A DNA stretch of 64,000 nucleotides from an uncultured Lachnospiraceae bacterium (GCA_964653635.1 CAZZGZ010000003.1:8438-72437); one strand, 5' to 3'. Counted from the first letter of the stretch, positions 21,524 through 52,330 are shown. Notes: generated by a model from the sequence alone, not told the origin. Numbers and translations: made by a program.

Positions 21524-21597
21524 TGGCAGGGGTGGAAGGAATCGAACCCTCCTCTAAAGTTTTGGAGACTCTCATTCTACCGATGAACTACACCCCT
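21524..21597 (-). tRNA. trnW: tRNA-Trp (anticodon CCA), with encoded CCA end
   Basis: The reverse complement folds as a cloverleaf. The acceptor is AGGGGTG/CACCCCT, the anticodon stem AGAGT/ACTTT carries a CTCCAAA loop, and the T-loop is TTCGATT. It ends with discriminator G and CCA. Confidence 0.9.
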
Positions 21598-30936: not shown

Positions 30937-30968
30937 TAAGCTTTATAAATATAAAAAAGGAGAATAAT

Positions 30969-31388: not shown

Positions 31389-31460
31389 ATTTTTATGAAT
31401 AAACTAAAATTTTCTGCATATTATACTATTGTGAAGAAGAATTACTTCACAAGAAACTAA

Positions 31461-31509: not shown

Positions 31510-31751
31510 TTTACTACTATTCTTAATTGTGTGACTATCATTTATATGTATGCAACTTGCCAAACACAAATTTAAAAATAATAAAACTATAATAACTTAT
31601 AACTTTACTTTATTTAATTATAGGTTTATGCAAATATAACTTTGAGTATATTACTTGCAAATTTTATTTAAAAATTAAAAAAAATCGAAAATTTTGTGTC
31701 AATTTTGTTAAAAAAGTGATAAATTTTTTCAATTTTTAATATTTAAAAATT

Positions 31752-33431
31752 TTAGATTACTGTGAGGTAATCGTAAGCATATTCCCCAGATGAAGTTTCA
31801 TATGTTGGAGTTTTTCCAGTTGGACCAACCACCGAACAACCATTGAACATCAAATTATAACTATATCCTTCTTCACCATTATACATTATCCAGCCAGTTT
31901 GCGTCTCTTCGTCAAATTCAGACACATAAATTGTCTGCATGCTAGAACACAATCCAAACATATACTCCATATTAGTGACGTTTATTGTGTTAAATGAGGT
32001 CAAATCCAACTCTGTAAGCAAGCTACAATTATAGAACATATAACTCATATCTGTTACATTTGAAGTGTCAAAACGAGACAAATCAATGTCTGTTAATACA
32101 GGACAATTCCAAAACATATATTCCATGTTTGTTACATTTGAGGTATCCCAGCCATCGCCAAGAATTATTTGTTTAAGCTTGCTACATTCTGCAAACATAC
32201 CACCACGTATGCTCCAATATAAATTCCCCATTCTAAGACAACTTGACGTATTAAAATAGGTCAAGTCTATAACCTCAAGAGAATAGCACCTTGAAAACAT
32301 ACCCGCCATATCAGTAACATTTTCACAAGTGAAGTCTTTATCAAAAGTGACACTCATCAAGTTCTTGCACTCTCTAAACATCCTATGTGTGGATAAAAGA
32401 CTTGCTGAGCTCCAACCTGTTAAATCTATATTTATAAAACCTGTATTTTGAAATATTCCATTTGATGTGTTGCCTGAACCTAAATACGTACCAAAATATT
32501 TAACTTTGGAAGTGTTAAACAAAGCTAGATCAATTCCGTTCTCGTTAAGACTTGTGCAATTTGCAAACATCCCAGACATATCTGTGACGTTAGATGTGTC
32601 CCATTCACTGCCAAGAATAATAGATGTTAAATTAGAACAACCATAAAACATTGCAGACATACTAGTTACATTTGAGGTATTGAAACTTGACAAATCTATA
32701 CTTGTTAAATTAGAACATACGGAAAACATCCCAAATTCAACCCAAGATTGCGTCCCCATATTTGTTACTTTTGATGTGTTAAAAGAAGTCATATTAAGGC
32801 TAGTAAGAGCTGTGCAGTTAGAAAACATTCCAACCATATTTGTAACATTAGATGTATCAAAATTTGTCCACTTAGTAAAATCTAGTGAAGTCAGTTTTTT
32901 ACAACTGGCAAACATATACCTCATATTCGTAACATTGTGAGTGTCAAAATTAGATAAATCTATACTTTCCAAAGAAGAAAGCCCACCAAACATCCCTTTG
33001 CAGGTGTATACACCTAAGATTTTCCCTGTATCCCCACCCATATTAGTAACATTAGATGTATCAAAGGTTGAAACATTAAGTGTTGTAAGTGAAATGCAAT
33101 TACCAAACATGGACTCCATATTGGTAACTTTTGAGGTGATAAAATTTGGAAATTTAGTAAAATCTAACGAAGTAAGAGTTTGACAAGAAAAGAACATCTC
33201 CCCCATGTTTGTTACATTTGACGTGTCAAAACTAGATAAATCTAAGGATGATAGCGAAGAACAACCTGTAAAGAGGTATGTCATGTTTGTTACGTTTGAC
33301 GTATTAAAACTAGATAAATCTAAAAATTCTAACATAGAACAAGAATAAAACATATAGCGCATACTGGTGACGTTTTCAGTGTCAAAGTTACTCAAATTTA
33401 AAGAAGTTAACATAGAACAACCATAAAACAT
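31752..33431 (-). CDS. DUF285 / 26-residue-repeat (BspA-family) surface-protein repeat ORF. It lacks a signal peptide and any non-repeat N-terminus, so it may be a gene fragment.
   Basis: About 20 copies of the 26-aa unit LDLSxFNTSNVTNMxxMFxGCSSLTS. The ORF begins inside a repeat (MFYGCSMLTSLNLSNFDTENVT). An in-frame TAA lies 6 codons upstream. Confidence 0.65.
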   Translation of the reverse strand: MFYGCSMLTSLNLSNFDTENVTSMRYMFYSCSMLEFLDLSSFNTSNVTNMTYLFTGCSSLSSLDLSSFDTSNVTNMGEMFFSCQTLTSLDFTKFPNFITSKVTNMESMFGNCISLTTLNVSTFDTSNVTNMGGDTGKILGVYTCKGMFGGLSSLESIDLSNFDTHNVTNMRYMFASCKKLTSLDFTKWTNFDTSNVTNMVGMFSNCTALTSLNMTSFNTSKVTNMGTQSWVEFGMFSVCSNLTSIDLSSFNTSNVTSMSAMFYGCSNLTSIILGSEWDTSNVTDMSGMFANCTSLNENGIDLALFNTSKVKYFGTYLGSGNTSNGIFQNTGFINIDLTGWSSASLLSTHRMFRECKNLMSVTFDKDFTCENVTDMAGMFSRCYSLEVIDLTYFNTSSCLRMGNLYWSIRGGMFAECSKLKQIILGDGWDTSNVTNMEYMFWNCPVLTDIDLSRFDTSNVTDMSYMFYNCSLLTELDLTSFNTINVTNMEYMFGLCSSMQTIYVSEFDEETQTGWIMYNGEEGYSYNLMFNGCSVVGPTGKTPTYETSSGEYAYDYLTVI

Positions 33432-33453: not shown

Positions 33454-33490
33454 AATAAAAAAACAACCGAGAGTTTGTTATTCGGTTGTT
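33454..33490 (-). terminator. Intrinsic terminator after the 3143-aa gene
   Basis: AACAACCGA/TCGGTTGTT stem with an 11-nt loop, followed on the minus strand by TTTTTTTATTTT. Confidence 0.7.
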
Positions 33491-33647: not shown

Positions 33648-36600
33648 CTATTCGGACATGTTACTGCTGTTATCCATAGTTTTCATCTTCTTTCTTCTTA
33701 TTATACCAGAAACAGCTAATATCACAATAATATCCGACAAAACTGCTATGAGTGTAATGTAAATCCATTTATTTCCGCCCTCGTCTTTAACTTTTGCGAC
33801 TACAAGAGTGATTTGACTACCACTTTCCAAGTTTATTTTGCCATTAGAAACATTGAGTTTGACCAATTCGCCATTTTGCAAAATGTAGAATGCGGTGTCG
33901 TCTTCATACTCTGAAACATCGAAAGATATGCTTAGTCCTTCCAGTTGTTGAGTTGTGCCATCGTCACTTTGCAAGGTTGCAACGATAACCTTTTCAATGT
34001 TTTTGATTTTGTTGTAATTTTCTCCCAGCGTTTCATAAATTTCAATACCATCTGTGATTTCTTGTACAACAAGTTGAACATCGTTAGCAAAACCATCTGT
34101 GTTTTCAAAAGTGAACTCCCCTTGAGTAATCGTTCTTCTCAAAACTTCCAAAGAGCATTCATATGTTCTTTCTGTAGCAGTGTTGGTGTATGAAATTATC
34201 AAATCTTGTTGTAATGACAAAGTTTCCCCATCTGCAACATTTGTAGAAAAGTTGATAATGTCTTCGGTGTCCCCATTGTTATAAATTGCTTTAACGGAAA
34301 TTGTACTAATATTAAATGCGTTGCCATCGACAAGATTTTCTGAACTTGTCGCCTCAATCCTATCAATTACAATGTTAATTCCCTCAATTGTGACTGAGCC
34401 TGTAATAGTGTTATAGTTGTTCCTGTCGGTTGGCGTGAAGATGTATGAATAGGAATTGCTCCCTGCGGTGATTTTGTTTGGAGTGAAAGTAAATTCTCCT
34501 TCAGTATCCCCACTTGCAAGTGTAATCGAAACGCTCGTTCCAACAAATGCAGATAAATCTTCGCCTATTGTCAAAATTGGATCTGCTTTTGTGATTGTGA
34601 ATTCTTTTGTTATTGAGCCAATTATATTCTCGTTATTTGAAGAAACTGTCATTGTAGCTGTACCTGCGTTTAAGTTGTCTACATAAGTCACTATATAATT
34701 TGCAACCTCAATTTCCACTTCATCCATTGAAAGAGAAATTTCTTGTGTCACATAATCGCCATAATTATAGGTTAAACTTTCCTCAAAACCCGAAATGGTT
34801 GCCTCTGACAAATCAATTTTGTTCACAACGAAAGTAATCGATTTTAAATCCTTAAAATTCCCTTGACCTGTGATTGTAATTGTCTTTTCTCCAGCATTTA
34901 AGCAGTCCTCTGAATATCCCACAATATAATCGACACCACTTGTCAGTTTTTTCTGTGTCTGTCCGTCTTCTTCGAAATATCCAAAAACATGAACCTCAAT
35001 TTCAGGGTTGATTTCATGACCTGAAAAGTAATATGAATTTTCAACGCCGGTGATAGTTGCATTGACAAGAGAAAGCCTTAAAATGTTGAATTGTGCATTA
35101 AAAGTCCCATAATAGTTGCCGTTCGCACAAGCGGTAACAACGACTGTTGCAACACCATAATCAATGTTGTTAGAATAGGTCGCCTCGTAGTCAGTCCCGC
35201 TTTCAAGTGTAATACTTCCATAAATTATAGTTAAATCTGGTTTGATTTCATATCCAGTGTAAGTTTGACTTGAAATTTCTGTAAGCATAGAATATTCCAA
35301 AGTTTTCTTAGCAATTTCAAAAGTTATATTTTTTTGAGAGTCTCCAACAAAATTTGAGGATTTTGCTGTTATCGTTAAAGTCCCCGTACCAGCATTTATG
35401 TTATTTGCATATGATACTGTGAAGTCAACACCATTTTCCAGTGTGATATAACCATATTTAACTGTAAATGAAGGTTGAATTTCACTACCGGTGTAGACGA
35501 TTTTGCTGTCTGTTATTGTCACAACGATGTCGCTATCTGCCAAAGATTTCGCCAATATCGAATAGGTTCTTTCCGTTGTCCCACTAAAGTTGTTTGTCCC
35601 CTTAATCGTGATTGTGATAGTTTGAACATCCACAAATGATGAAGTGGAATATGAGCAAACAAAATCATTTGAAGTTAAAACATAACTATTGAGTTTAATT
35701 TCAGGAGTTACAATATGACTTTGCCCGTCATATGTGATGTCGTCAATGGTGCTGATGCTTACACTCGTGTCATCTATATCTCGTGCGGAAATTGTGAATG
35801 AGCTACTCATAGTGCCAACATAATTTTCCTTAAACACAACAATAATGCGTGCTGTGTCCACACCTGCTGAGATGTTATTTTCATAGGACACATCATAATA
35901 ATCAGCAGAAAGTTCGCTTTCTGAGCCCACAAACTTCACGGTCACATTTGGTTTGATTGCACTGCCCGTGAAAATATACTCTCCACTTTCCACAACAATT
36001 TCAAAGGATGTTGTTGAGGCAACCGATTGAGAGATTTTGAAGGTTGTGGAAGTTTGCTCGCAGAAATTACCACATCCATTGATTATCACCGTTGCAGTGC
36101 CATAGTTTGTGTTATTTGAATAACTCAAAGTGAAAGGCGTTGTGGCATCAGTGTTTGTATATAAGATTGAATTGTAAACGATTATAACATTTGGTGTGAC
36201 TTCTCCGCCCGTGTATCCCTGTTCTGCAATTGGACGGATAGATATATCGCTGTCTGCAAGGGATTTTGGAGTAATGGTGAAGTTTTGAGTTATACTTCCA
36301 GTATAGTTTCCCTTCCCTGTGATTGTTATAGATGCGCCACTAGTCACAACCTCATTTTCATATGCAACATTGATATTGTTTAAATAACTGATATCAAAGT
36401 TGGCAGTACTGAGTGATACATTTCGTGTTTTGTCAACAATTTCAAACGACAAAGTGATTTCATTTCCAGTGTAAACAAAACTCAAATTATCAAAAGTCGT
36501 TGTAAAGCGTGTTGAATCGTCAATACTTGCAGGAGTGATTGAATATGAATATGTATTAATCGTTCCAGAAAAATTACCACATCCTGTGACTACTATATAA

Positions 36601-39600
36601 ATTGTTCCAACATTGATGAAATCTGTTGTGGCAACGTAATTTTCACCATCCAAACACTTGTATGCAATGGTAAAATCAGTGTTTTCAACCAAAGTTACTT
36701 CGCCAAGTGTGAGGATAGGAACAAGTTTGCGTTCAAGCCCGTTATAGACAACATCTGAAATTGTGCCTTTTGTAACTGTATCACTTGTTATAGTTAGAGG
36801 TGTTATTTTGAAACTTCGTGACACCGTTCCAGTGTAATTGCCAGTTCCAGTGATTGTCACATATGCCCCTGCAATAACCTCTCCGTCTGAATAGGTGACA
36901 TTTATATTGTTTAAATAGGTTGTCGAAAATGACGAAATTGAGGTTTCCCCGTCTTTGATGGTGATAGTTGTAGTGATTTCACTTCCAGTGTAGACGAATT
37001 CAGTTTGTGCAAGTGAAATTTCAAAGCGTGAAGTGTCGGAGATATCCGCTGTGACAATTTGATAAACAAAACTCAAATCATCGGCAAAATTTCCAAGTCC
37101 AGACACTGTGATAGTCACCGTTCCAACATTTATCCTATCACTTGAATATGAAACGCTGTAATCCGTGTTTTCGATTAAAGATGTGCTGTTGAATGTTAAA
37201 GTTATGCTCTTTGAGGTGATGGAACCTGTGTATGTTTCATCGGTGAGAACATATTTTCCACCAGACAGGGTCCCATTTTTAGTGATGGTTGACGAGGTAA
37301 GTGAAAGCGGAGTAATACTATATTCGATGGAAGTCGTGTTTTTAAAATTCCCTATGCCAGTAATTACAATCCTTATTCTGCCAACATTGACAAAATCTGA
37401 AGTTTCGTTGTAGTCACTTCCCTCATAACGCTGATATTGTATCGTGTAATCACTGCTAAGGACAAGCCCCAACCCATTAAACGAAAGATTTACATCTTGC
37501 TTTCTTGAACTTGCGTTGTAAACTAAATCTGCAAGGGTAACAACACTTGCCTCACTGATATCTCTTTGTTCAATCGTGAATGTTGCAGTTACTGTGCCGG
37601 TATAATTGTTCACACCGGTTATTGTCACAAGTGCATTTTCGCCAGCATTTACGTTGTTTGAATATGTGATTGAGTATTCCAAATTAACAGTTAGCATCTT
37701 GCTATCCAAAACAACACTTAAAACGGCAGGAGTTTTTTCAGTTCCGTCATAGGTGAGGGTTGTGTCGTCCAAAGTCACAACTGCATCAGTTATTGGTGCA
37801 GGATTGATGGTGAAAATCAAGCTGACGACACTCGTGAAGTTATTTATACCTTTAAAGAAAACGTTTGCCTTTCCAGCGTCAGTGTTAGCATAGTAGCCAT
37901 CGGTTACCTCCAAAATATTGGTTGCTCCCGCCTCTTTTGCCTCTTCTTCTGAATCATATCCTATCTCATTGTCAAGGTCATAATAGCCTGTAAAAATTGC
38001 AAAATCAGTACCCCAGCTAAGAGTTTGATAGCCTGTGATTCCATCTTTGTCTGACATATAAATTTGCAAAGTTAAATCGCTTGAAGTAAGTTCGATTGCA
38101 CTGCCGGTGTAAGTTTTGTCAGTGATTGTATATTTCATCTCACTACCTATAAGCTCTCTTGCAACGACCTTATAGGTTTTAGTAACAACACCTGTGAAGT
38201 TTCCAGTTCCAGTTGTGGTCACAACATAATCTCCCACCTCGCTGAAAATTTCAAGAGAAAGTCCGTTGGCATTAGAAATACCAAAAGTGTAGTCAGTTGT
38301 TACAGTCAATTCAACTTTCTCGTTTGCATGATTTACAAAAGTGATGATTGGTTTCACGCTGTGCCCAACATAAGTTTGGTCGCCGTTATTAATTTCTTTT
38401 GAAATGGCATCATAATAATCAATCGTAAGGTCGTTGATGTTCACTGTGGAAATTGAGAAATTCACTGCAATTTCGCCATCTCCGTTCTTAAAGTTGGAGT
38501 TTTCCGTAGCGTTGATTTTCACGGTTATCGTTCCAGCAGAGGTGTAATCAGTTGTTTGCGAATTACCACGATAATACGAAACATCATACTCATTTACTCC
38601 TAGCACAAGTCCACCCTCTGCCAAAACTCTTGAAATAGTTGGCTGATGAGTGTTGCCGTCATAGGTTGCCGATATACTTACAAGGCTGACTGCCAAAATC
38701 TCCGCCTTATTAATGACAAATTTGCAAGTTGCAGTTCCTTCGAAATTGCCAGTGGCAGAAGAAATTGTGATTGTGATTGTTCCCGCATTGACAAGACTTG
38801 CAGAGTAGCCCACTCTGTATTCGTTTTCCAAAACAGTAAGCCCGCCTTTGCTTGTCACACTTGTGATTTTCACCTCATGTGCTTGTGCGTTGTATGTTGC
38901 AGAGTAACTTTCCAGCGTGACAGAAGAAATTGTGTCAGCAATAATGGTAAACTGCTCGCTTACTGTACCAGTGTAGTTGCCCTTTCCTGTCAAAGTCAAG
39001 GTTGCACTGCCAGCATTTATGTTATTTAGATATGAAACAGAATAATCGTCTGTGTCAAGTGTGTAGTTTAAATCCTCATCGGTTGCAGTGAAAGTTGGAG
39101 TTTTCTCTTTGCGGTCAAAAGTGTATGTTCCAGAAATTGTAAGTGTGACATTTGAGAGGTTTCTTGCTGTGATTTGATATGTAACCACCTTCAAGCCCGT
39201 ATAACTTCCCATACCGGTTATGGTCACAGACACAACGCCAACGTTAATCAAATCGTCTGAAAAGACAAGCGTGTAATCAGTGTTTTCAATCAAAGTTGTT
39301 CCACCCAAAACAACGGAAATTGTTGTCTTGTTTGTTTCGCCGTTATATACAACATCAGGAGCGTTGACAACAGCGGAAGCAAGTGTTTGTGAAGTGATGT
39401 TAAATGTTATTTCTTTTGTCCCTTGATAGTTTCCACTGCCGGTAATTGTCACACTGCCATTGCCAACAGAAATATTTTCGCCATAAGAAGTGATGGTGTA
39501 ATCCGTGCCACTTGTCAAAAGGGTTTTTACTGAATTGATATTGTCATAAACGGAAACACTAGGCTTGATTTGACTGCCAGTATACTCATAATCTGCAACT

Positions 39601-42600
39601 TCCACCGTGGTAAGAGAAATATCTTTCTTTAAAATGGTGAAAGTTTGTGTGAATGAGCCAGTGAAATTGCCAGTAAAGGTTATCAAAATCTTAGCAGAAT
39701 CGCTTGCGTTGACGTTGTCGGAGCAAGAATATGTGTAGTCCGTTCCGCTGACAAGTTCATTACCATTATAAGAAACTGTAAATGTTGGAATTTGTGACGT
39801 GCCGTCATAGGTGTGAGTTGAAGTCACCGAGGCCGTGGCAGAAGTGGAGATATCCAGTGCTTTGATTGTGATTGAGCCAGCAAGACTTCCAGAATAATTA
39901 TAACTGCTCCCGTTCTGCTTTGCATAAATTGAAACGCCAACAAAACCTGCATTGACAAAATCGGAAGGGGAATATGTGACGGAATAATCATCAGCTGAAA
40001 CGACTTTTCCGTTTGCGTCAAATACTTGAATGATAGGACTAATTGCCGTGCCAGAGTATTCAACTTCTAGTGCCGTGCCAGAATTTTCACCGATTGTGAT
40101 AGTAAATGATGAAAGTACGCCCGGTGAGATGACAAAGTTTTTAGAAATTGTGCCTTGATAGTTTCCAACGCCCGTCAAAACGATTGTGGCAGTGCCAGCA
40201 CTTGTGTTATTAGAATAGGTGCAAGTGTAACCCTCACTTTCCACAACGACTGAGCCATTTGAATAACTTGTCACCACACTTTGTATGGTCAAAGTTACCG
40301 CTTCCCCTGCATAGAAAATTTCCGTGCTTGCGTCACCTTCATAAGTGATACTCCCGCCGGTGATATCAAGTTTTGAAATTGTGAAGATTTTTGTTGCCGT
40401 GCCGGTGTAACTTCCACAGCCCGTTATAACAAGATAATATGTCCCTGCATCACGAAGTGAAGTCACAACATCTCCACTTGTCGAGCCTAAGTACCAAGCA
40501 TATGTAAAATCGGTGGTCTGTTCAAGGGTTCTACCCTCAACAGAAACAGAAAATGTTGGAGTTTGCTCCTCTTTGTTGTAAATAGTGGCACTTGACGACA
40601 TAGTAATGCTGTCAGCCGTGATTGTACCTTTGTTAATTGAGAAAGTTGCTGATTTAGATGAAGTGTAGTTTCCAATACCCGTCAAAATCACATAATATGT
40701 GCCTACTTCAGTTGGATTTGTCACAACTTCGCCGTCAGCGGTTGAGAAGTGATATGTAAGAGTATAATCTTTACCCTCTGTCAAAGTTGTACCACCAGCA
40801 ACCATTGTCACTGTTGGAATGTTTTCCTCACCATTGTACACAAACGAAGTGTCACTTAGAGTCAGTGTTCCACTTGACAAACTTATAGGTGCGATATAGA
40901 AAGTTGTGGACCTTGTGCCAGTGTAGTTTCCAAGCCCAGTGATAGTCAGTGTGGCAGTGCCAGCATTTGTGTTCTCTGAGAATAGATATGTGTAATCCGT
41001 CCCTGTCAAAGTCGTCTTACTTGCCCCGGTGTCCGTCACAGTGAATGATGGTGTGATTGCACTTCCGGTGTAACTTTGGTCAGCGATGTTTGAAATTGAG
41101 ATGGTTTCACCTGTAATATCCCTCTGTGTAATCGTGAAAGTAGACGTTGCAGAGCCATAATAACATCCCATACCGGCGATTGTAATTGTCACTGTTGAAC
41201 CAGCAGCTGTGTTAGATGAGAAAGCAAGTGTATAATCTGTATTCTCGGTCAAAGTCAAATCTGTGTCAACATCTTTCACGGTCACATCGACTATAAAAGT
41301 ACTTCCCGTCCACTGCACACTGCTCACGTGGGCAAATTCGAAATGGTCGGCGGTGATTTCCTTGATTATTCTAAATTCAAAAGATAGTGTACTATAATAA
41401 TCTCCATCACCAGTTATTGTCACACTTACAATGCCAACTGAAACGTTATCACCTATTTTTGTGATTGTGTAATCAGTGCCCTCGGTTAAAACGTAGTTTC
41501 CAAAGACGATTACTGGGCTAACTTCTTCACCTGTCCAATCCACATCTTCAAAAACTAGATCCACACTTTCCAAATCACGTTCATCAGCATCTTCCACTGC
41601 TGCATTTAAATTGAGATGAAGTGCAGGACGTACTGCGTAGGCAATATTTACATTACTTGAAGTGTAAGATGCGCCACCTAAATCCAAATAATAAGTTGTG
41701 CTTGCACTGTTATAAACTGCTGAGCGGAGCCATGAAGAATATGTGACATTTGACCTTTGCGACGTGGAAGTCCCCCAAAGTCCAACATAAGAGGAGCTGT
41801 ACCCAGTTTCTGCCACACTTGGAAGCCAAAGATAATCATTTGCCCATGTGTCACTTCCGAGAATACTTGCATAGTTGTAAGTTGAAGAATAAAATCCTGT
41901 ATCTGCCATACTAGTGGAGTAGGCATCATTAGAATAGTTGTATGTGGTGTTTTGAATGGTCTTAGAACTTTGTGTTTCCTGCCATGAAATCTTGCTAGGA
42001 GTGACAAGATATTTTGTCAAACTGCCTGCAATGTCCGTCATAGTGAATTTTGCAAACTCATTTGTCTCTGATTGAGTTGCTGTTAAAGTTTCAGTGTTAG
42101 AAGTTGCATACTCTCCACCCCCATTCAAAGTCACTGCACGAATATACGAGGTGCCATACATGTTAGATGGATATGTCACACCTGTTGAAGTGGAATACCA
42201 TCCACTTGACCAAGTTGAAGTGGAAGTGCTATTTGCAAGCCAAAGGGTGAGAATATCGTTGCCGTCAGAGTCCTTTGAAAGATACATCACCTGCCAAACA
42301 AGTCCGCCAAAGGTCACCAAAATATCGTTGTCAGAGGTCTTTCCCGCATAATCATTTTCCCTTATACCTGTCGCATTTAGGGTGCTTTCTGCCAAAGTGG
42401 AAATTGCACTCATATTGTCAACTGTCACAGTGGAATCATTAGAGATGACTTTTAAAAGTTTGCTTAAATTTGCCTTGTCAAATTTGTTTTGAGAGCTTAG
42501 ATATATATCGCCCACCGTGGTGATTGTGTAAAGAATTCTTACCGTGCCGGAGTAGTTTCCCGTGCCTTTTACCACAACATAATATACCCCTGCGTCCGAT

Positions 42601-43079
42601 GGTGTCGATATCGTGCTTTTGCTAGTGTTTTCATAGTGGTCAAAAACATAATCCTGCCCTTTGACTAGGGTTGTGCCATTTGCTTTTAAAACAAAACTTG
42701 GAGTAATCGCTGTGCCTGTGTACTCAAAATAATTTTGACTTGTGGTCAAGGTATATTTAGAAATATCACTTGTTATTGAAAAATATGCCGTTTTACTTCC
42801 CGTGTAACCACTTCCCTCTACTGCCGTGATCGTCACACTTGCTGTGCCGATATCCGTGTTGTCAGAATATTCAATGGTGTAATCGGTTCCAAGGGTGAGG
42901 ACTGCGTCGTCATATTTCACAACGACATTTGGAAGTATTTCACTCCCTGTATACAATTGCTCCTCAATCCCAACTGATGCAAACGACAAGTTTTTCTCAG
43001 TGTCCGAGTCGCCAGAGGCGACAGATTTTGCCGCACTAAGTGCGGCAGAGTTTAGATTGAGGTGAAGCGCAGGACGCAC
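33648..43079 (-). CDS. Giant (3143 aa as called) surface adhesin-like protein. From N- to C-terminus it has two Ig-like modules, a DUF6273/C-type-lectin-like WLRS...VRPAL domain, about 28 further Ig-like modules, and a C-terminal TM anchor. Its 5' end is contiguous with the DGR template repeat.
   Basis: The module consensus is YTG..I.P.V.....L..GTDYT..YSNN.N.GTA.VTITG.GNY.GT. The C-terminal helix is WIYITLIAVLSDIIVILAVSGII, followed by RRKK. The called GTG start at 43079 lies inside the TR. There is no signal peptide, and the first ATG codon is residue 223. The true start is uncertain. Confidence 0.75.
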   Translation of the reverse strand: MRPALHLNLNSAALSAAKSVASGDSDTEKNLSFASVGIEEQLYTGSEILPNVVVKYDDAVLTLGTDYTIEYSDNTDIGTASVTITAVEGSGYTGSKTAYFSITSDISKYTLTTSQNYFEYTGTAITPSFVLKANGTTLVKGQDYVFDHYENTSKSTISTPSDAGVYYVVVKGTGNYSGTVRILYTITTVGDIYLSSQNKFDKANLSKLLKVISNDSTVTVDNMSAISTLAESTLNATGIRENDYAGKTSDNDILVTFGGLVWQVMYLSKDSDGNDILTLWLANSTSTSTWSSGWYSTSTGVTYPSNMYGTSYIRAVTLNGGGEYATSNTETLTATQSETNEFAKFTMTDIAGSLTKYLVTPSKISWQETQSSKTIQNTTYNYSNDAYSTSMADTGFYSSTYNYASILGSDTWANDYLWLPSVAETGYSSSYVGLWGTSTSQRSNVTYSSWLRSAVYNSASTTYYLDLGGASYTSSNVNIAYAVRPALHLNLNAAVEDADERDLESVDLVFEDVDWTGEEVSPVIVFGNYVLTEGTDYTITKIGDNVSVGIVSVTITGDGDYYSTLSFEFRIIKEITADHFEFAHVSSVQWTGSTFIVDVTVKDVDTDLTLTENTDYTLAFSSNTAAGSTVTITIAGMGCYYGSATSTFTITQRDITGETISISNIADQSYTGSAITPSFTVTDTGASKTTLTGTDYTYLFSENTNAGTATLTITGLGNYTGTRSTTFYIAPISLSSGTLTLSDTSFVYNGEENIPTVTMVAGGTTLTEGKDYTLTYHFSTADGEVVTNPTEVGTYYVILTGIGNYTSSKSATFSINKGTITADSITMSSSATIYNKEEQTPTFSVSVEGRTLEQTTDFTYAWYLGSTSGDVVTSLRDAGTYYLVITGCGSYTGTATKIFTISKLDITGGSITYEGDASTEIFYAGEAVTLTIQSVVTSYSNGSVVVESEGYTCTYSNNTSAGTATIVLTGVGNYQGTISKNFVISPGVLSSFTITIGENSGTALEVEYSGTAISPIIQVFDANGKVVSADDYSVTYSPSDFVNAGFVGVSIYAKQNGSSYNYSGSLAGSITIKALDISTSATASVTSTHTYDGTSQIPTFTVSYNGNELVSGTDYTYSCSDNVNASDSAKILITFTGNFTGSFTQTFTILKKDISLTTVEVADYEYTGSQIKPSVSVYDNINSVKTLLTSGTDYTITSYGENISVGNGSVTITGSGNYQGTKEITFNITSQTLASAVVNAPDVVYNGETNKTTISVVLGGTTLIENTDYTLVFSDDLINVGVVSVTITGMGSYTGLKVVTYQITARNLSNVTLTISGTYTFDRKEKTPTFTATDEDLNYTLDTDDYSVSYLNNINAGSATLTLTGKGNYTGTVSEQFTIIADTISSVTLESYSATYNAQAHEVKITSVTSKGGLTVLENEYRVGYSASLVNAGTITITISSATGNFEGTATCKFVINKAEILAVSLVSISATYDGNTHQPTISRVLAEGGLVLGVNEYDVSYYRGNSQTTDYTSAGTITVKINATENSNFKNGDGEIAVNFSISTVNINDLTIDYYDAISKEINNGDQTYVGHSVKPIITFVNHANEKVELTVTTDYTFGISNANGLSLEIFSEVGDYVVTTTGTGNFTGVVTKTYKVVARELIGSEMKYTITDKTYTGSAIELTSSDLTLQIYMSDKDGITGYQTLSWGTDFAIFTGYYDLDNEIGYDSEEEAKEAGATNILEVTDGYYANTDAGKANVFFKGINNFTSVVSLIFTINPAPITDAVVTLDDTTLTYDGTEKTPAVLSVVLDSKMLTVNLEYSITYSNNVNAGENALVTITGVNNYTGTVTATFTIEQRDISEASVVTLADLVYNASSRKQDVNLSFNGLGLVLSSDYTIQYQRYEGSDYNETSDFVNVGRIRIVITGIGNFKNTTSIEYSITPLSLTSSTITKNGTLSGGKYVLTDETYTGSITSKSITLTFNSTSLIENTDYSVSYSSDRINVGTVTITVSGLGNFADDLSFVYQIVTADISDTSRFEISLAQTEFVYTGSEITTTITIKDGETSISSFSTTYLNNINVTYSDGEVIAGAYVTITGTGNYTGTVSRSFKITPLTITSDTVTKGTISDVVYNGLERKLVPILTLGEVTLVENTDFTIAYKCLDGENYVATTDFINVGTIYIVVTGCGNFSGTINTYSYSITPASIDDSTRFTTTFDNLSFVYTGNEITLSFEIVDKTRNVSLSTANFDISYLNNINVAYENEVVTSGASITITGKGNYTGSITQNFTITPKSLADSDISIRPIAEQGYTGGEVTPNVIIVYNSILYTNTDATTPFTLSYSNNTNYGTATVIINGCGNFCEQTSTTFKISQSVASTTSFEIVVESGEYIFTGSAIKPNVTVKFVGSESELSADYYDVSYENNISAGVDTARIIVVFKENYVGTMSSSFTISARDIDDTSVSISTIDDITYDGQSHIVTPEIKLNSYVLTSNDFVCSYSTSSFVDVQTITITIKGTNNFSGTTERTYSILAKSLADSDIVVTITDSKIVYTGSEIQPSFTVKYGYITLENGVDFTVSYANNINAGTGTLTITAKSSNFVGDSQKNITFEIAKKTLEYSMLTEISSQTYTGYEIKPDLTIIYGSITLESGTDYEATYSNNIDYGVATVVVTACANGNYYGTFNAQFNILRLSLVNATITGVENSYYFSGHEINPEIEVHVFGYFEEDGQTQKKLTSGVDYIVGYSEDCLNAGEKTITITGQGNFKDLKSITFVVNKIDLSEATISGFEESLTYNYGDYVTQEISLSMDEVEIEVANYIVTYVDNLNAGTATMTVSSNNENIIGSITKEFTITKADPILTIGEDLSAFVGTSVSITLASGDTEGEFTFTPNKITAGSNSYSYIFTPTDRNNYNTITGSVTIEGINIVIDRIEATSSENLVDGNAFNISTISVKAIYNNGDTEDIINFSTNVADGETLSLQQDLIISYTNTATERTYECSLEVLRRTITQGEFTFENTDGFANDVQLVVQEITDGIEIYETLGENYNKIKNIEKVIVATLQSDDGTTQQLEGLSISFDVSEYEDDTAFYILQNGELVKLNVSNGKINLESGSQITLVVAKVKDEGGNKWIYITLIAVLSDIIVILAVSGIIRRKKMKTMDNSSNMSE
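34700..41600 (-). repeat. Tandem array of about 28 divergent ~85-95-aa Ig-like coding modules (approximate bounds)
   Basis: The G(T/V/K)DY(T/S)..Y..N...G.A and ITG.GNY.G signatures recur through the translated ORF. Confidence 0.7.
41604..41732 (-). repeat. VR-like segment homologous to the DGR template repeat (residues W450-N492 of the giant ORF); not a clean cognate VR
   Basis: It aligns without gaps to 43050..43178, codon for codon over 43 codons. 12 of the 15 TR Asn codons in the 25-codon variable core are replaced (V,Y,S,S,T,Y,D,Y,T,S,S,I). However, 33 of the 49 nucleotide mismatches are not at TR adenines. Confidence 0.6.
41604..42332 (-). other. DUF6273 / DUF1566-like (C-type-lectin-fold-like) domain whose C-terminal strands carry the VR-like segment
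   Basis: FGGLVWQVMYL...ILTLWLAN...DYLWLPSVAE...SWLRSA...YAVRPALHLNL. This pattern matches the W.vL / FLLS.xE / WWLRS / GVRPAL layout I recall for that family. Confidence 0.5.
43030..43046 (-). other. GC-rich hairpin 3 nt downstream of the TR
   Basis: GCCGCAC-TTA-GTGCGGC on the coding strand: a 7-bp perfect stem (6 G:C pairs) with a 3-nt loop, extendable by an A:T pair. It is not followed by a T run. It stands out in an AT-rich genome. Confidence 0.6.
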
Positions 43080-43178
43080 GGCGTAGGAATTATTGACATT
43101 ATTATTGTTGTTACTTGAGCCGGAAGGGTTGAGATTATAACTATTATTGTAGTTATTGTTGTTGGCGGAGCGCAGCCA
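43050..43178 (-). repeat. DGR template repeat (TR), 129 nt
   Basis: Conceptual translation: WLRSANNNNYNNSYNLNPSGSSNNNNNVNNSYAVRPALHLNLN. 15 of the 25 core codons are AAC or AAT. It lies 112 nt downstream of avd and is homologous to 41604..41732. Confidence 0.8.
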
Positions 43179-43216
43179 AGGACCCTCGCATTGATAAAAA
43201 GTCTTTATCCACTCCT

Positions 43217-43246
43217 ATCTTAACACAAAGGTCATACTTTTTGCAA
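43217..43246 (-). promoter_or_regulatory. Possible promoter in the avd-TR spacer, followed by an AGGAG with no usable start codon
   Basis: On the minus strand: TTGCAA (43246-43241), an 18-nt spacer, then TAAGAT (43222-43217). AGGAG follows at 43216-43212, overlapping the in-frame TAG at 43217-43215. Confidence 0.3.
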
Positions 43247-43290
43247 CAAAATTTATCCCTACATATTTAATTTTATAGTATGTACTTAAT

Positions 43291-43725
43291 TTATTTTGCT
43301 TCCATCTGTTTTTTCGTGCTTCTTGCCCATCCCATCAAAAGTCTTCTGCATTCTTCGATTTGTGTAGCCATGACTGTCATTTGATGTAAGTTTATAGCCT
43401 GCATTTTCTTCGCCGTTTCAGCATAAAAATTGAGAAGACTGAGATTGACCGCCACTTTCTTTTGATATTCTAGTCGCATTTCGTTTCTCTCAAAATTTGC
43501 ACGATATAAATCTTCAATTATTTGTGTGGAACAATTTTGCAATCTTGCCACTATGCTCCATCTCAGTTTTTTTGGCGACTTTTCCGTGATAATAAAGATG
43601 TATTCGCTCAACTTTTTTGCATGAGTGAACACTGCAAGTTCTCTGTCACCCGTCATCGGTACTGCAACCTTAAAAGGCTTTCTTGCCACCTTGTTAGCGT
43701 CTATTTGTTTTTCTTCCATAATCAT
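43291..43725 (-). CDS. avd: DGR accessory variability determinant (Avd-like four-helix-bundle protein), 144 aa
   Basis: The ATG at 43725 overlaps the RT stop (ATGA). The sequence is helical: FTHAKKLSEYIFIITEKSPKKLRWSIVARLQNCSTQIIEDLYRAN...LLMGWARSTKK. This fits the recalled Avd / 23S-IVS four-helix-bundle family pattern. The track's 5' extension to 43842 lies inside the RT gene. Confidence 0.8.
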   Translation of the reverse strand: MIMEEKQIDANKVARKPFKVAVPMTGDRELAVFTHAKKLSEYIFIITEKSPKKLRWSIVARLQNCSTQIIEDLYRANFERNEMRLEYQKKVAVNLSLLNFYAETAKKMQAINLHQMTVMATQIEECRRLLMGWARSTKKQMEAK

Positions 43726-44915
43726 TCTCCTTTTTGTTTTTCCGTTTTGTTTAACGGCTTTAAAATCTCTTTTAATGGCTCTTGCAACTCTCTTTCCAAC
43801 TTGAAACAATTTGCGTGTTTCAAATGTCCATGAAATGCACAAAGTGATGCTTTTACTCTCTCTTTATCAATCGTACCATCTGCATACGCCCTTTTTAAAA
43901 GTCTTACCCGCCATCGCATCCTTTTCTTTGTCTTTTTTGCAACCTGCTTGATAAGTTTCCCACTCGGTGTTATATAGTAGCGAAATCCCAAGTATTTTAC
44001 CCCGTTTCGAAGGGGAAAAATTTGCGTTTTGGAGTTTAATTCTAGTCCAAGTTCGCTTACTTTTTTCTTAATCTCATCATATGCCCTCTCAATCACCGCT
44101 TTGTCTTTATCGATGAGTATAAAATCGTCCATATACCTTGAATATATCTTGATTTTAAGTTTTTCTTTTATAAAACAATCCAAACTATCCAAATAAAACA
44201 TCCCAAAAATTTGGCTCGTCTGATTGCCTATCGGAATACCTCTGCCAGTGCTGACAATTTTTTCATGTTGATTTTTCTTAGACTCACTTTTTGAATTTTG
44301 ATTAATTATAATCACATCATTGTTTTTATTTTCAGTCAAGGGTTTTATGTTGTTTTTTGCTAGATATTCTGGATTTGTATGATAACTGTCAATCACGTCC
44401 TCAATGAGTGTCCTTATATCCTTATCCTTTATGTGTTTGCAAATCACTTTTTTAAGTTTTTCATGCGGAATACTTGCAAAATATTTTTTTATGTCACATT
44501 TAAGCACCCATACGTCATCACCATTTTGTCGTATGTAAGTTCGTAGCATTTTTTCAAAACGAGCAAGGGCAAAATGCAGGCCTTTGCCTTTTTGACATAC
44601 ACAATTATCAAGTATCACCTTTTTTGTAAAATATGGTGCTAGAATGTCGTCACACAAAATATGTTGGACAATCCTGACATTATAATCTAGTGTTTGGATT
44701 TCCCGTTTCTTTGGCTCAAAAACTACAAAACTATGATACCTTCTTATCTTGAATTCCCGCTGTTTCAACTCCAAAAACAACTTTCTCAAATTTTCAAGCA
44801 TATTAAATTCAAATTTAACTATCGGTTTTTTATCCCTCTTGGCAAGTCTTGCCCTTAGGTGTGCTTTATAAATGTTTTCAAAAGAAAAAACATCGTCATA
44901 TTTGCAATCAATCAC
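43722..44915 (-). CDS. DGR-type reverse transcriptase
   Basis: RT motifs in order: FEPKKREIQ, ILDNCVCQKGKG, LKCDIKKYFASI, GIPIGNQTSQIFGMFYL (the DGR hallmark [ILV]GxxxSQ), and YSRYMDDFILI (YMDD). GTG start. An Asn/Lys-rich insertion precedes motif 4. Confidence 0.9.
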   Translation of the reverse strand: MIDCKYDDVFSFENIYKAHLRARLAKRDKKPIVKFEFNMLENLRKLFLELKQREFKIRRYHSFVVFEPKKREIQTLDYNVRIVQHILCDDILAPYFTKKVILDNCVCQKGKGLHFALARFEKMLRTYIRQNGDDVWVLKCDIKKYFASIPHEKLKKVICKHIKDKDIRTLIEDVIDSYHTNPEYLAKNNIKPLTENKNNDVIIINQNSKSESKKNQHEKIVSTGRGIPIGNQTSQIFGMFYLDSLDCFIKEKLKIKIYSRYMDDFILIDKDKAVIERAYDEIKKKVSELGLELNSKTQIFPLRNGVKYLGFRYYITPSGKLIKQVAKKTKKRMRWRVRLLKRAYADGTIDKERVKASLCAFHGHLKHANCFKLERELQEPLKEILKPLNKTEKQKGE

Positions 44916-45114
44916 AAAAATTTTTTACTCCATTACAATTTTAACATAAAACATATAAAATCAAAAATTTTTTAAATTCTTGACGTAAAAATGCGTATTT
45001 ACAATTAAAAACTTACAATTTTCAATTTAAAATCATGATATGTGCTTGTCTGAAAACAAGGGCAATTTGGTAGAAAACTAAATTTAGTAATGTTTTTAAA
45101 TTTGACAAATTCAC

Positions 45115-45140
45115 AAAAAAAGACTCCTATATAAGAGTCC
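45115..45140 (-). terminator. Weak intrinsic terminator after ORF 45160..45549
   Basis: On the minus strand: GGACTC-TTATATAG-GAGTCT (6 bp including one G:U pair), followed by TTTTTTT. Confidence 0.4.
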
Positions 45141-45159
45141 TTAAATTATTATACTAGAC

Positions 45160-45549
45160 TTAAAAGTCTTGAGTTTTTTCATTTAAAAATTCTGCCTCGA
45201 TAGCTTCTGCTCTATCAACAATGTCCCTAAGTTGCAAATGACTTACGGTCGATTTAGAAATATTGAATACATTTACTGGATAATAATACTGAGCAAAATC
45301 TGTCAATGAATATATCCTAAAATCATCTGTCCCTAAAAAATTACGTATTGGATTGCGTAAATCACCGCTTACATCCAAAATTATCTGTTCTGGATAGAGG
45401 ATTTTTATTTTCTCTTTGTTATTGTTGTATATGTATGGATAAACTCTCCCTCGCATCCTATCAATTATCCAAAAAATTTTGTAAATACTATAATTCATTT
45501 CATCTCCTTGTATGTAGCCTATTATATCAAAGCTTGTTTTATTTGTCAA
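45160..45549 (-). CDS. Hypothetical protein (129 aa)
   Basis: An ORF between ftsY and the DGR RT. No recognisable motif. Confidence 0.45.
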   Translation of the reverse strand: MTNKTSFDIIGYIQGDEMNYSIYKIFWIIDRMRGRVYPYIYNNNKEKIKILYPEQIILDVSGDLRNPIRNFLGTDDFRIYSLTDFAQYYYPVNVFNISKSTVSHLQLRDIVDRAEAIEAEFLNEKTQDF

Positions 45550-45583
45550 GGATAAAAAATAACAATTTCAAAACTTTATGCCA

Positions 45584-46483
45584 TTATTCAAACAACCCAT
45601 CCACAAAATCTGTGGCTGAAAATAGCTCTAAATCTTCCTCTTGCTCCCCAACACCTATAAACACAACGGGCTTGTTATACTCTTTCTCTATGGAAATAAT
45701 CACTCCCCCTTTTGCCGTTCCATCAAGTTTTGTCAATATGATACCATCTATGTTTACTGCACTATCAAATGCGGAAATCTGATTGAGTGCATTTTGACCT
45801 GTGGTTGCATCTAGCACAATGAAAGTGTAGTGATGAGCTTCTTTATATTCACGATGTGAAATCTTCTCTATCTTTTTAAGTTCTTCCATTAAATTAGTCT
45901 TTGTGTGCAATCTTCCTGCAGTGTCCACAATCAAAACGTCAGTCCCTTTGGCTTTGGCACTTGAAATACCATCAAACACAACAGAGGCAGAATCTGCCCC
46001 TTCTTCATGCTTGATAATGCGGGATTTTGTACGCTTTGCCCATTCAGCTAACTGATTTGAAGCTGCTGCACGAAAGGTATCACCTGCAACAAGTGTCACG
46101 CTTTTGCCTTTATCCTTGAAAAATCTTGCAAGCTTGCCAATAGTGGTAGTCTTGCCAACACCATTTACTCCAACAATGGTGATAATAGCTGGATACTCTA
46201 TTTCTACTTTTGGAGCATTTTCAAGCATTTCTGTTAGTACCTTTTTTAGTGCTAACTTGACATCATTTGAAGTTCGCAGTTTTTCCTTATGTGCCTGTGT
46301 GCGTAAACTCTCTACTATTTCAAAACTGACTTGGCCACCTATATCAGAAGAAATCAGTATCTCTTCAAGTTCCTCATAAAATTCGTCATTTAATTCACCA
46401 TGACTTAGTAGCGAATCTATCTTTCTACTAAAACTATCCTTTGTCTTTTTTAGTGCCTCTTTAAATTTTTTAAATAATCCCAT
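45584..46483 (-). CDS. ftsY: Signal recognition particle receptor FtsY (short form, NG domain only)
   Basis: GVNGVGKTTTIGKLA, LVAGDTFRAAA, LIVDTAGRLH, and TKLDGTAKGG. Confidence 0.95.
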   Translation of the reverse strand: MGLFKKFKEALKKTKDSFSRKIDSLLSHGELNDEFYEELEEILISSDIGGQVSFEIVESLRTQAHKEKLRTSNDVKLALKKVLTEMLENAPKVEIEYPAIITIVGVNGVGKTTTIGKLARFFKDKGKSVTLVAGDTFRAAASNQLAEWAKRTKSRIIKHEEGADSASVVFDGISSAKAKGTDVLIVDTAGRLHTKTNLMEELKKIEKISHREYKEAHHYTFIVLDATTGQNALNQISAFDSAVNIDGIILTKLDGTAKGGVIISIEKEYNKPVVFIGVGEQEEDLELFSATDFVDGLFE

Positions 46484-46622
46484 TTTCTACTTCCACTCCA
46501 TAAATGATAAAATTTTAAAATTTTGCCTAAAAATTCGTTAAAAAATTGAATAAAATCTCACTTTTCTTGCATTTTTGCACAAAAAAGTTATAAAGCGTCA
46601 TTTTTTTTGTCGTCAATTTTAT

Positions 46623-50216: not shown

Positions 50217-50310
50217 ATAACTTCCTATTTTTTTATTTTTTTGCTAAAAAAACTTAAAAAATCGCAAAAAAAGTAGATTTTTTGTAGTTTTTTTTAAAAT
50301 TTTTGTAATT

Positions 50311-51941: not shown

Positions 51942-52330
51942 ATTTTTTCTCCTAAATATCAAGAATATTCTATCAAAAATATAAATTTTTTCCAAACAAA
52001 TTACACACTTTATAGAAATAGTGAACATAATAAAATCTTAGCATATAAAGTAATACTAAAAAAACTAGCAAATAACCAAATAAATAACAAGTTTCTAAAC
52101 AAAATTTATATTTTAATTTTGAAAAATGATATATTAAAGGTTGTGATGTAAAATTTCATATATGTAGTTATAATATGTACATACTACTTACTACATATAG
52201 TGCATAATTTTTATTAATAAGCAAGCAATACAAAGCTTATACTAGATAAAAAAGCGTCATCTAAAAATTGGCACTTTCTTTCACACTTATAAAAAAACTT
52301 AAAGGTTTTGCCTTTAAGTTTATATAGTTT

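Follow-up and report, generated by a model that had tools for sequence, protein, structure and literature searches.

Gene content and layout of the locus

The window analysed here is a 64,000-nucleotide stretch from a 114-kb contig of an uncultured Lachnospiraceae bacterium. It carries a reverse transcriptase (RT), an Avd accessory protein, a segment resembling the template repeat (TR) of a diversity-generating retroelement (DGR) and a very large open reading frame, all on the minus strand. Every sequence feature listed in a first-pass annotation of this DNA was found at its reported position; the features that the argument needs are as follows.

44915..43722, minus strand: DGR reverse transcriptase, 397 aa, GTG start (Pfam RVT_1, 5e-19; solved-structure match; alignment)
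43725..43291, minus strand: Avd accessory protein, 144 aa (Pfam bAvd, 43 bits)
43290..43179, minus strand: non-coding spacer from the Avd stop to the template, positioned as the Avd-to-TR spacer of L013 and L018
43183..43062, minus strand: template-repeat body (WLRSANNNNYNNSYNLNPSGSSNNNNNVNNSYAVRPALH), the TR-derived half of a hybrid (AAY codons, design of relatives' TRs)
43061..43029, minus strand: flank of variable-repeat (VR) type, CTCAATCTAAAC followed by the hairpin TGCCGCAC-tta-GTGCGGCA (matches VR flanks of L013 and L019)
43214..33648, minus strand: candidate truncated target gene, open frame of 3188 codons (frame, MBG/Ig-like repeats, C-terminal anchor)
42488..41595, minus strand: internal DUF6273-like (C-type-lectin-like) domain (homology to the L013 target)
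41744..41601, minus strand: VR-like end of the internal domain (SWLRSAVYNSASTTYYLDLGGASYTSSNVNIAYAVRPALHLNLN), homologous to the template, not cognate
33773..33699, minus strand: C-terminal transmembrane anchor, WIYITLIAVLSDIIVILAVSGII followed by RRKK (from the sequence of the large ORF)
33490..33454, minus strand: intrinsic terminator after the large ORF (visible in the sequence)

The RT contains the annotated PIGNQTSQ and YMDD motifs, of the I/LGxxxSQ (motif 4) and YxDD types typical of the DGR clade, and its catalytic motifs are intact in an alignment with 14 relatives. Its best match among solved structures is the 328-aa chain 8ub7_A (E 5e-32), which is listed as "Reverse transcriptase" and which we take to be the bRT of Bordetella phage BPP-1; retron and group II RTs follow at about 1e-10. 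The assignment to the DGR clade made in the first-pass annotation agrees with this match and with a profile check, in which the protein scores far below the cutoffs of the non-DGR models: 84 bits against 300 for group II RTs, 60 against 200 for Drt3a, 51 against 390 for Drt2, and 37 against 235 for retron St85. PADLOC returned only generic RT and DRT matches of at most 109 bits. The GTG start, with GGAG 12 nt upstream, is as previously described and aligns with the Met-Ile start of the 14 relatives. Also as described, an insertion precedes motif 4; it is rich in Asn, Lys and Ser, spans 24 aa just before PIGNQTSQ, occurs in none of the 14 aligned relatives and is lineage-specific. A further change, R247C, affects an arginine that is invariant among the aligned relatives. 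A total of 2985 RT homologues were found at E<=1e-20, the nearest being 62% identical; identity to the RTs of L013 and L014 (P0037), loci with canonical TR/VR pairs, is 55%.

The stop codon of the RT overlaps the start of the 144-aa ORF in an ATGA junction (gagaATGAtt). The identification of this ORF as Avd holds: it scores 43 bits with Pfam bAvd (cutoff 40) and shares 60% identity with its counterpart in L013, an actively diversifying relative, while NCBIfam DivGenRetAVD gives 52 bits, under its cutoff of 80. The layout had been called non-classical, a description we do not retain, as each related locus examined follows the order RT-Avd-TR with the target downstream, Avd coming after RT and TR after Avd in 19 of 19. 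The locus is a genuine DGR cassette belonging to a large gut-Clostridia family. Intact members of this family have the order RT, Avd, TR with a 3' RNA element, and then the target, sometimes after a few unrelated genes. In an intact target, a signal peptide precedes a DUF6273/C-type-lectin-like domain that ends, at its C terminus, in the VR; a conserved hairpin comes directly behind the VR, and Ig-like MBG repeats and a membrane anchor complete the gene. In these members RT and Avd act as a complex that copies TR RNA into adenine-mutagenised cDNA, which replaces the VR.

A template body joined to a VR-type flank

The adenine-rich segment starts at 43178, 112 nt beyond the Avd stop, and AAC or AAT makes up 15 of the 25 codons in its core, as had been reported. 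The runner-up among 25-codon windows in six frames of the 64 kb holds nine such codons, and the enrichment is far beyond chance. The segment follows the design of the TRs of L002, L005, L009, L013 and L018. Its earlier reading as a template repeat stands for the 5' flank and body, which are TR-like; it fails for the 3' flank, which is of VR type and lacks the RNA element.

This flank (43061..43029) reads HLNLNSAALSAA, encodes LNLNSAALSAA and, in a comparison with L013 and L019, matches the sequence after their VRs rather than that after their TRs. A tblastn comparison gave 94% identity over 16 aa to residues 355-370 of the L013 target. The VR 3' flanks of L013, L014 and L019 share the pattern HLNL(K/S)SAAL.AA with a GCCGC..GCGGC hairpin, and the hairpin in the window, GCCGCAC-tta-GTGCGGC (43047..43029, minus strand; 8 bp, -9.7 kcal/mol, z -4.5), falls on the same codons as the post-VR hairpins of L013 and L019; a synonymous change between them is compensatory. 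It sits after the template body, not after a VR. Past the body, the order of HLNL-SAAL coding sequence, conserved hairpin and MBG repeats is that of the relatives' post-VR sequence, and the flank would correspond to the target-recognition flank of a lost VR.

True TRs are followed by something else. Their 3' flanks are non-coding in L002, L005, L009, L011, L013, L018 and L019 (HHTL*, HSPAI*, HSLTTKD*), and the intact relatives carry a structured RNA element of about 110 nt on the 3' side of the TR, conserved with 13 of 21 pairs covarying and without a match in Rfam. A covariance model built from the relatives (R1) scores 100-132 bits on true TR flanks, with three TR-flank matches outside its build set (one in L018, two in L019), and 12.8-16.8 bits on the relatives' VR flanks. 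Its best score in the window is 18.1 bits, a value whose reading assumes that this lineage shares the relatives' element, and there is no copy of the element elsewhere in the window. For the Bordetella phage DGR, processive cDNA synthesis needs the non-coding RNA located 3' of the TR (PMC6182149; 10.1101/2023.10.23.563531), and a post-VR hairpin favours efficient retrohoming (PMC3240598).

The large frame lacks an N-terminal end

Two features of the adenine-rich segment went unnoticed in the first-pass annotation: it is in frame and continuous with the large ORF from 43214, and the GTG at 43079, from which the 3143-aa ORF is mechanically called, lies inside it. An in-frame stop in the spacer (43217..43215) closes the frame upstream of the template; from 43214 the frame runs open through the template, and its first start codon, inside the template, has no ribosome-binding site. 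The description of the product as a surface protein is not borne out at the 5' end, where there is neither a start codon with a ribosome-binding site nor a signal peptide. Hydrophobicity peaks at 1.28 within the first 700 aa, whereas the signal peptide of L013 reaches 2.69, yet the ORF has a C-terminal membrane anchor; the targets of the intact relatives L013 and L009 both begin with signal peptides. We interpret the large ORF as an N-terminally truncated target gene, and the missing N-terminal domain has no further copy in the window. The strong terminator annotated at 33490..33454 can be seen in the sequence; a consensus scan missed it because its 11-nt loop exceeds 8 nt.

Downstream, the large ORF contains an internal domain (42488..41595) that is 39% identical to residues 109-367 of the L013 target (E 6e-39). 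Pfam DUF6273 (PF19789) gives it 18.7 bits over model positions 80-171, below the cutoff of 23.5, and scores the L013 and L001 homologues above it (33.9 and 25.1 bits). The domain is a paralogue of the relatives' VR-bearing domain. Its end (41744..41601) is the segment that had been noted as homologous to the template, and this homology inside the 3143-aa ORF is real. The segment is not the cognate VR of the template: mismatches fall at template adenines in 16 cases and elsewhere in 44, only 57 of 101 non-A positions match, and the 3' end differs at seven synonymous third positions and at no adenine. This lack of adenine specificity had not been noticed before. In L013 and L014, by comparison, all TR/VR mismatches lie at TR adenines (15/15 and 18/18), and the VR differs between these two samples.

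The 64-kb window contains no TR/VR pair that differs (almost) exclusively at TR adenines. The scanner for adenine-biased pairs used here was validated on L013 and L014 and on outgroup loci, where it recovers canonical pairs in 58 of 74; the search for a remote VR covered 64 kb of the 114-kb contig. No conspecific sequence was found, the RT cluster having one member, and an exact-pattern scan across 185,579 species genomes returned a single unrelated homologue, L001.

Origin of the junction

The TR body is thus joined in frame to post-VR sequence, so that the RNA element, the TR-VR interval, the 5' end of the target and the VR are missing. Because the adenine-rich template is fused to its own target gene, both the VR and the required RNA signal are gone, and the element is therefore probably dead or mis-assembled; as sequenced, it is probably an orphan, inactive DGR that would be unable to prime cDNA synthesis or to diversify anything. 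We consider this hybrid of TR and VR flank likely as a whole, whether a deletion or an assembly collapse made the junction. From the anatomy we infer that recombination between TR and VR did so: a crossover between the two direct repeats, near their shared 3' end (..GCCGTGCGTCCTGCGCTTCAC), would yield the hybrid junction and would have removed the TR 3' RNA element, the TR-VR interval, the VR and the target 5' end, the last comprising start, signal peptide and lectin-like domain. The lineage's own TR 3' element and its state before the deletion are presumed from cousins, of which the nearest has an RT 62% identical.

The intact RT, Avd and 3188-codon frame imply that a real deletion would be very recent or else that the junction is an assembly artefact, and on balance we favour the former. 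Under the latter, the genome would have an intact DGR, with RT-Avd-TR-3' element followed by a target with signal peptide and VR, and the assembler would have jumped from the TR to the VR flank and dropped a few kb. This account is unlikely but deserves serious consideration: the junction falls exactly at the repeat, a classic signature of collapse; every ORF is intact; and relatives' contigs tend to end directly past Avd or the TR, indicating a region that is hard to assemble. Against it, the exact sequence common to TR and VR at the 3' end in relatives amounts to only about 20-22 nt, presumably not enough for an assembler to join paths at its customary final k-mer length, and the contig runs 114 kb through the site. 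Against a recombination event, uninterrupted TR/VR identity at the presumed crossover is only about 20-25 nt, which is short for RecA-type recombination.

An active DGR with a VR outside the window, its in-frame continuity with the large ORF being incidental, has precedent in remote DGR targets such as those of Treponema (summarised in PMC5758913) and would suit the intact RT and Avd and the visibility of only 64 kb of the genome; it is improbable, given that the template's 3' flank is of VR type and lacks an element conserved in all TR-bearing relatives, that the scan of species genomes yielded only the unrelated L001, and that a fused, target-like ORF without an N-terminus is left unexplained. 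Very improbable is an aberrant retrohoming scar, in which the DGR acted on itself: a cDNA anchored at the VR 3' end would have extended past the TR 5' end and been resolved against the donor, deleting the DNA between TR and VR. The same hybrid anatomy would result, and TAC, AGT, TAT, AGT and TAC codons where relatives have AAY/GCN could be single A-to-N changes from AAY, a weak hint; yet 43 adenines are kept in the 144 nt scored, losses being far below the roughly 40% of real VRs, ordinary recombination is the simpler account of the junction, and no precedent was found in the literature searched. We give least credence, and very little at all, to the model in the first-pass annotation, an intact, active DGR whose TR diversifies the co-transcribed 3143-aa protein at 41744..41601. 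Protein-level homology with a shared WLRS...YAVRPALHLNLN frame is real, the variable residues of that segment (Y, S, T, A, V, D, G, I, N) should be reachable from AAY codons, and the scan for terminators gave none from the RT as far as 33490. The mismatch spectrum contradicts the model, with 44 of 60 mismatches at non-adenine template positions where active relatives have none; the flank of 41601 also lacks the conserved hairpin (none significant, z -0.5), and the RNA element after the TR is absent.

Implications

An RT, an Avd and an adenine-rich repeat beside a homologous protein resemble a complete DGR, a trap for annotation; here the mismatch spectrum and the flanks show that there is no working TR/VR pair. 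The covarying RNA element could serve to separate templates from variable repeats and to reveal orphan or broken cassettes. With RT-Avd-TR-target on one strand, deletion between the TR and VR direct repeats becomes possible and is a plausible natural route of DGR loss. Were the retrohoming scar true instead, same-strand DGRs upstream of their targets would carry a built-in risk of self-destruction, which could account for the opposite-strand TR, or the genes between TR and target, of close relatives.

Comparison with known systems

Gut Clostridia share a very large DGR family in which this layout is normal and the VR, of the N-terminal DUF6273 type, lies in giant surface proteins with MBG repeats. 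The nearest members (L013/L014, RT P0037; L009, P0002; L005, P0004; L018; L019) have RTs 51-62% and Avds 56-68% identical to those of the window, with the same RT-to-Avd order, target type and VR flank and a common TR design (WLRSGNNNNANNA.NLN.SGS.NNNNNVNNS.AVRPALH). These relatives keep a TR 3' RNA element, a separate VR with adenine-only mismatches and a target with a signal peptide, whereas the window lacks all three and has the additional 24-aa RT insertion.

The DGR of Bordetella phage BPP-1 (mtd-VR, avd, TR, brt) has a homologous RT, Avd and adenine-loaded template. It carries a hairpin after its VR (PMC3240598), as the window does just after its VR-type flank, and a structured non-coding RNA after its TR (PMC6182149; 10.1101/2023.10.23.563531), as do the window's intact relatives. 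The BPP-1 order is target-avd-TR-RT rather than RT-Avd-TR-target, its host is a phage whereas the element in the window is chromosomal, and its target has a C-terminal Mtd lectin fold instead of an N-terminal DUF6273-like domain in a giant repeat protein; the VR and TR 3' RNA element of BPP-1 have no counterpart in the window.

Closer in target architecture are the tentaclin-type/DUF6273 targets of gut phages and Faecalibacterium prophages (PMC10743442, PMC11792537), in which, as in the intact L013 target, Ig-like repeats come after an N-terminal DUF6273/C-type-lectin-like domain that has the VR at its C-terminal end. The gene in the window differs in being chromosomal, in its much longer MBG-repeat stalk and membrane anchor, and in the apparent deletion of the VR-bearing N-terminal domain, its internal domain remaining under the DUF6273 cutoff (18.7 against 23.5 bits).

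Reverse transcriptase and accessory protein

All features of the diversity-generating retroelement (DGR) lie on the minus strand, and its two protein-coding genes are arranged as follows.

Protein-coding features of the DGR in the window
44915..43722, minus strand: reverse transcriptase (RT) ORF, 397 aa, with PIGNQTSQ and YMDD; GTG start 12 nt after GGAG
44243-44314: insertion NDVIIINQNSKSESKKNQHEKIVS in the RT, residues about 201-224
43725..43291, minus strand: 144-aa accessory protein (Avd) ORF, its ATG overlapping the TGA stop of the RT

The DGR-type hallmarks, the start signal and the stop-start overlap named by the first-pass annotation are all present. The RT matches Pfam RVT_1, and its best match among solved structures is the 328-aa chain 8ub7_A (E 5e-32, both protein halves covered), which we take to be the Bordetella phage DGR RT, whereas retron and group II RTs reach only ~1e-10. 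It also falls far under the cutoffs of the curated group II, Drt and retron RT models, confirming an enzyme of the DGR kind. About 3000 homologues were found at E<=1e-20, gut metagenomes and Clostridia MAGs being their main sources; the closest is 62% identical. Alignment with 14 homologues showed all catalytic motifs intact, confirmed the GTG start and found the Asn/Lys-rich insertion before motif 4, noticed earlier, to be a 24-aa low-complexity Asn/Lys/Ser-rich stretch unique to the window RT. Residue 247 is Cys, a position held by Arg (..VDR..) in the matched solved RT and in each of the 14 relatives. As a gauge of relaxed selection, deviations at columns invariant in relatives were counted: eight in the window RT, and seven and six in two other divergent members.

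The 144-aa protein passes the Pfam bAvd model (43 bits, cutoff 40), scores 52 bits with the NCBIfam Avd model, under its cutoff of 80, and is 60% identical to the Avd of L013, a related locus that is visibly diversifying; its proposed Avd-like nature thus holds. It has no sequence match among solved structures and is itself absent from the searched protein collection, where the RT cluster has a single member.

Cassette order in related loci

In each of the 19 related loci examined (RT 51-62% identical), Avd is 3' of the RT in the same orientation and frequently overlaps it, so that the layout described as non-classical is so only by comparison with the Bordetella phage. Where the contig runs on past Avd, a template repeat (TR) of the design WLRSGNNNNANNA.NLN.SGS.NNNNNVNNS.AVRPALH is present, and a lectin-like-domain gene of the same type is found downstream on the RT strand. 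The order RT-Avd-TR-target is the norm of the window's DGR family. A published survey counts 48 cassette architectures (PMC5758913), which may include this one; we found no literal description of the RT-avd-TR core order in the literature. The TR lies on the RT strand in L005, L013, L018 and the window but is inverted in L002, L009 and L019; because its orientation relative to RT-Avd flips between close relatives, some of these must use a separate promoter for the TR. A deletion against a same-strand variable repeat (VR) is impossible for an inverted TR.

The intact state is represented by L013 and L014, two samples of one relative with the order RT, Avd, TR, integrase, GIY-YIG gene and then a target of >2439 aa. 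This target starts with the signal peptide MKCFNQKQQRIRTAAIGFLSLLLCAVLSVFAVG, followed by a DUF6273-type domain with the VR as its C-terminal end (residues about 323-362), by HLNLKSAALAAGL and by MBG repeats, and the VR sequence differs between the two samples. The VR is also downstream of the RT in the outgroup clade (L021-L094, RT 38% identical). In this very common human-gut clade the TR immediately precedes the RT, and the VR follows the RT by ~660 nt (in L030: TR 7735-7836, RT 8001-9056, VR 9722-9823).

Some related loci vary in their number of parts. Three tandem TR-like copies follow Avd in L011 (11940-12603), only the third bearing the 3' RNA element described below. L019 has four matches to this element on the strand opposite the RT (10236-13535, minus strand), three of which adjoin detected TR copies, and a single VR (16126-16275). 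The RT-Avd pair of L020 (8001-10300; RT 52% identical) is directly followed by a terminator-like hairpin and housekeeping-type ORFs, with no TR-like segment, RNA element or lectin-domain gene in the 7.4 kb downstream; this cassette may likewise be incomplete, or its other parts may be remote.

A structured RNA distinguishes TR from VR flanks

Immediately 3' of true TRs in relatives comes non-coding sequence (HSPAI*, HHTL*, HSLTTKD*, HSPVNI*), which in this family forms a conserved structured RNA element of about 110-150 nt. Compensatory changes support 13 of its 21 predicted pairs, and it comprises two hairpins, TTYCCGTATTC and GAGRTGAAGGG, the last complementary to the TR end CTTCACC. It matches no Rfam family; its probable Bordetella counterpart is the 'Sp' RNA, which binds Avd and primes synthesis.

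TR 3' elements in related loci
L002: 11715-11860, minus strand
L005: 12280-12425
L009: 2780-2925, minus strand
L013: 11554-11699
L018: 5334-5486
L019: 11885-12030, minus strand

True VRs in relatives continue as HLNL(K/S)SAAL.AA, whose SAAL codons are spanned by a small GC hairpin (GCCGC-ttta-GCGGC in L013, GCCGCGC-tga-GCGCGGC in L019).

The template segment of the window

The A-rich segment starts at 43178, 112 nt past the Avd stop codon, and encodes WLRSANNNNYNNSYNLNPSGSSNNNNNVNNSYAVRPALHLNLN; the template body (43183..43062) spans TGGCTGCGCTCCGCC...TCCTNCGCCGTGCGTCCTGCGCTTCNC. AAC or AAT make up 15 of its 25 core codons, and only 9 in the next-best 25-codon stretch of the whole 64 kb in all frames. 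Because of this margin, and because the features lie where they had been placed, the observations of the first-pass annotation, including that of an adenine-loaded segment, are correct and beyond chance.

The two flanks of the segment differ in kind. Its 5' flank is TR-like, non-coding and directly after Avd, with a stop 12 codons upstream of WLRS. The 3' flank is of the VR kind, HLNLNSAALSAAKS with the hairpin GCCGCAC-tta-GTGCGGC (-9.7 kcal/mol, z -4.5), whose pairing is kept relative to L019 via two synonymous changes (GCA/AGT to GCG/AGC). R1, a covariance model built from the TR 3' elements of relatives, scored at best 18.1 bits in the window, compared with 12.8-16.8 on VR flanks of relatives and 100-132 on their TR flanks, three matches from outside the building set (one in L018, two in L019) included. 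Rfam gave nothing within 40000..46000, and the Sp-like motif GATTTGAGRTGAAGGG occurs within the window at chance level only, its near-matches being the reverse complement of TR and VR ends. We consider it likely that the window "TR" is a hybrid, a TR-like 5' flank and body joined to a VR-type 3' flank; in the intact arrangement, the N-terminus with signal peptide and lectin domain would join ..CTCAATCTAAACTCTGCCGCAC.

The large ORF and candidate recipients

The large frame, that of the MBG-repeat surface protein, begins its 3188 open codons at 43214 and runs through the template. Its earliest ATG/GTG/TTG is a GTG inside the template without a ribosome-binding site, and among the possible starts TTG 42956 alone has a Shine-Dalgarno-like sequence. 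The first 700 residues contain no hydrophobic segment (maximum 1.28; L013 2.69), while the L013 and L009 targets begin with signal peptides; the C-terminal end has a membrane anchor followed by RRKK. The missing N-terminal domain has no other copy in the window, the best match in a search for an intact allele, run with the N-terminal 326 aa of the open frame, is only 36% identical, and the product itself is absent from the searched protein collection. The ORF is headless, lacking a proper start and signal peptide. Its G+C is 0.36-0.42 (34000-44000) and that of the flanks, including the RT gene, 0.28-0.35, which suggests a different origin or a strong composition bias of the repeat protein.

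The sole other DNA in the window similar to the template is 41744..41601, inside this ORF. The similarity to part of the adjacent protein noted earlier is thus real, but the stretch is not the cognate VR: 44 of 60 mismatches fall at non-adenine bases and 16 at template adenines, non-adenine positions agree in only 57 of 101 cases, and all seven differences at the conserved 3' end are non-adenine, mostly at synonymous third positions. It is a diverged paralogue and not a present recipient of the template. A scan of the whole window found no adenine-biased repeat pairs. The same scanner did pick up canonical pairs elsewhere: every mismatch is at an adenine in L013 (15/15) and L014 (18/18), and 58 of 74 outgroup loci yielded pairs with mismatches almost purely at adenines.

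An exact-pattern scan with the template 3' end (N at adenines, one genome per species) had a sole match, L001, a 619-aa protein of a rabbit-gut Clostridia MAG (324-2183, minus strand); its C-terminal DUF6273 end ..YSCAVRPALHLNLTAIANSL* and the template end are identical over 27 nt. We rejected this VR-like end as the cognate VR; its 9-kb contig carries no RT, and it probably serves a different DGR of this family as VR.

Genomic neighbourhood

Upstream of the DGR lie plsX, rnc, smc and ftsY (45584-52028), a typical low-GC Bacillota chromosomal context.

Other features of the window
45549..45521, minus strand: perfect sigma-70 consensus promoter, TTGACA-17-TATAAT with TG, driving the small ORF
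45498 (ATG) to 45160, minus strand: small ORF of about 112 aa with good ribosome-binding site, between ftsY and the DGR
45142..45119, minus strand: terminator ending the small ORF
33431..31752, minus strand: 559-aa DUF285/LRR protein whose repeats have a 78-nt period, just downstream of the large ORF
29743-30936, plus strand: tyrosine integrase gene, just downstream of the large ORF
21941-22201: large SRP RNA (129 bits)
21597..21527, minus strand: tRNA-Trp
20982..14752, minus strand: 2076-aa S8 peptidase/BspA-LRR protein

The small ORF has no Pfam match and was rejected as a cassette part, since each relative has different genes upstream of the RT. The region 29743-33431 may be an island; an integrase also lies between TR and target in L013.

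Origin of the junction and comparison with known systems

The simplest account is a crossover between TR and VR, which are direct repeats, close to the 3' end that they have in common. Such an event would take out the TR 3' element together with any genes in between, the target's 5' end and the VR; RT-Avd-TR body-VR flank-rest of target would remain. A VR may instead lie elsewhere in the genome, which leaves both the VR-type flank and the headless ORF unexplained. With the RT, Avd and the 9.5-kb frame all uninterrupted, either the event must be recent or the assembler made the junction; an assembly artefact would fit these open frames, but exact TR/VR identity at the junction is only ~20 nt, which we infer to be short for graph collapse, and a real deletion is therefore favoured. 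TR-VR recombination is discussed in the literature as a background event in engineered systems, and we found no description there of a natural TR::VR fusion.

In the Bordetella phage, processive, self-primed cDNA synthesis depends on the RNA that follows the TR (PMC6182149; 10.1101/2023.10.23.563531), and a hairpin after the VR promotes efficient homing (PMC3240598). As sequenced, the window element has lost its recipient and probably also its ability to make cDNA. The locus is a DGR of a known kind in a large, uncharacterised but clearly canonical family, and its unusual point is its broken state. The target type of this family matches the tentaclin architecture, in which an N-terminal DUF6273/C-type-lectin-like domain precedes Ig-like repeats (PMC10743442), and the DUF6273 targets of Faecalibacterium prophages (PMC11792537).
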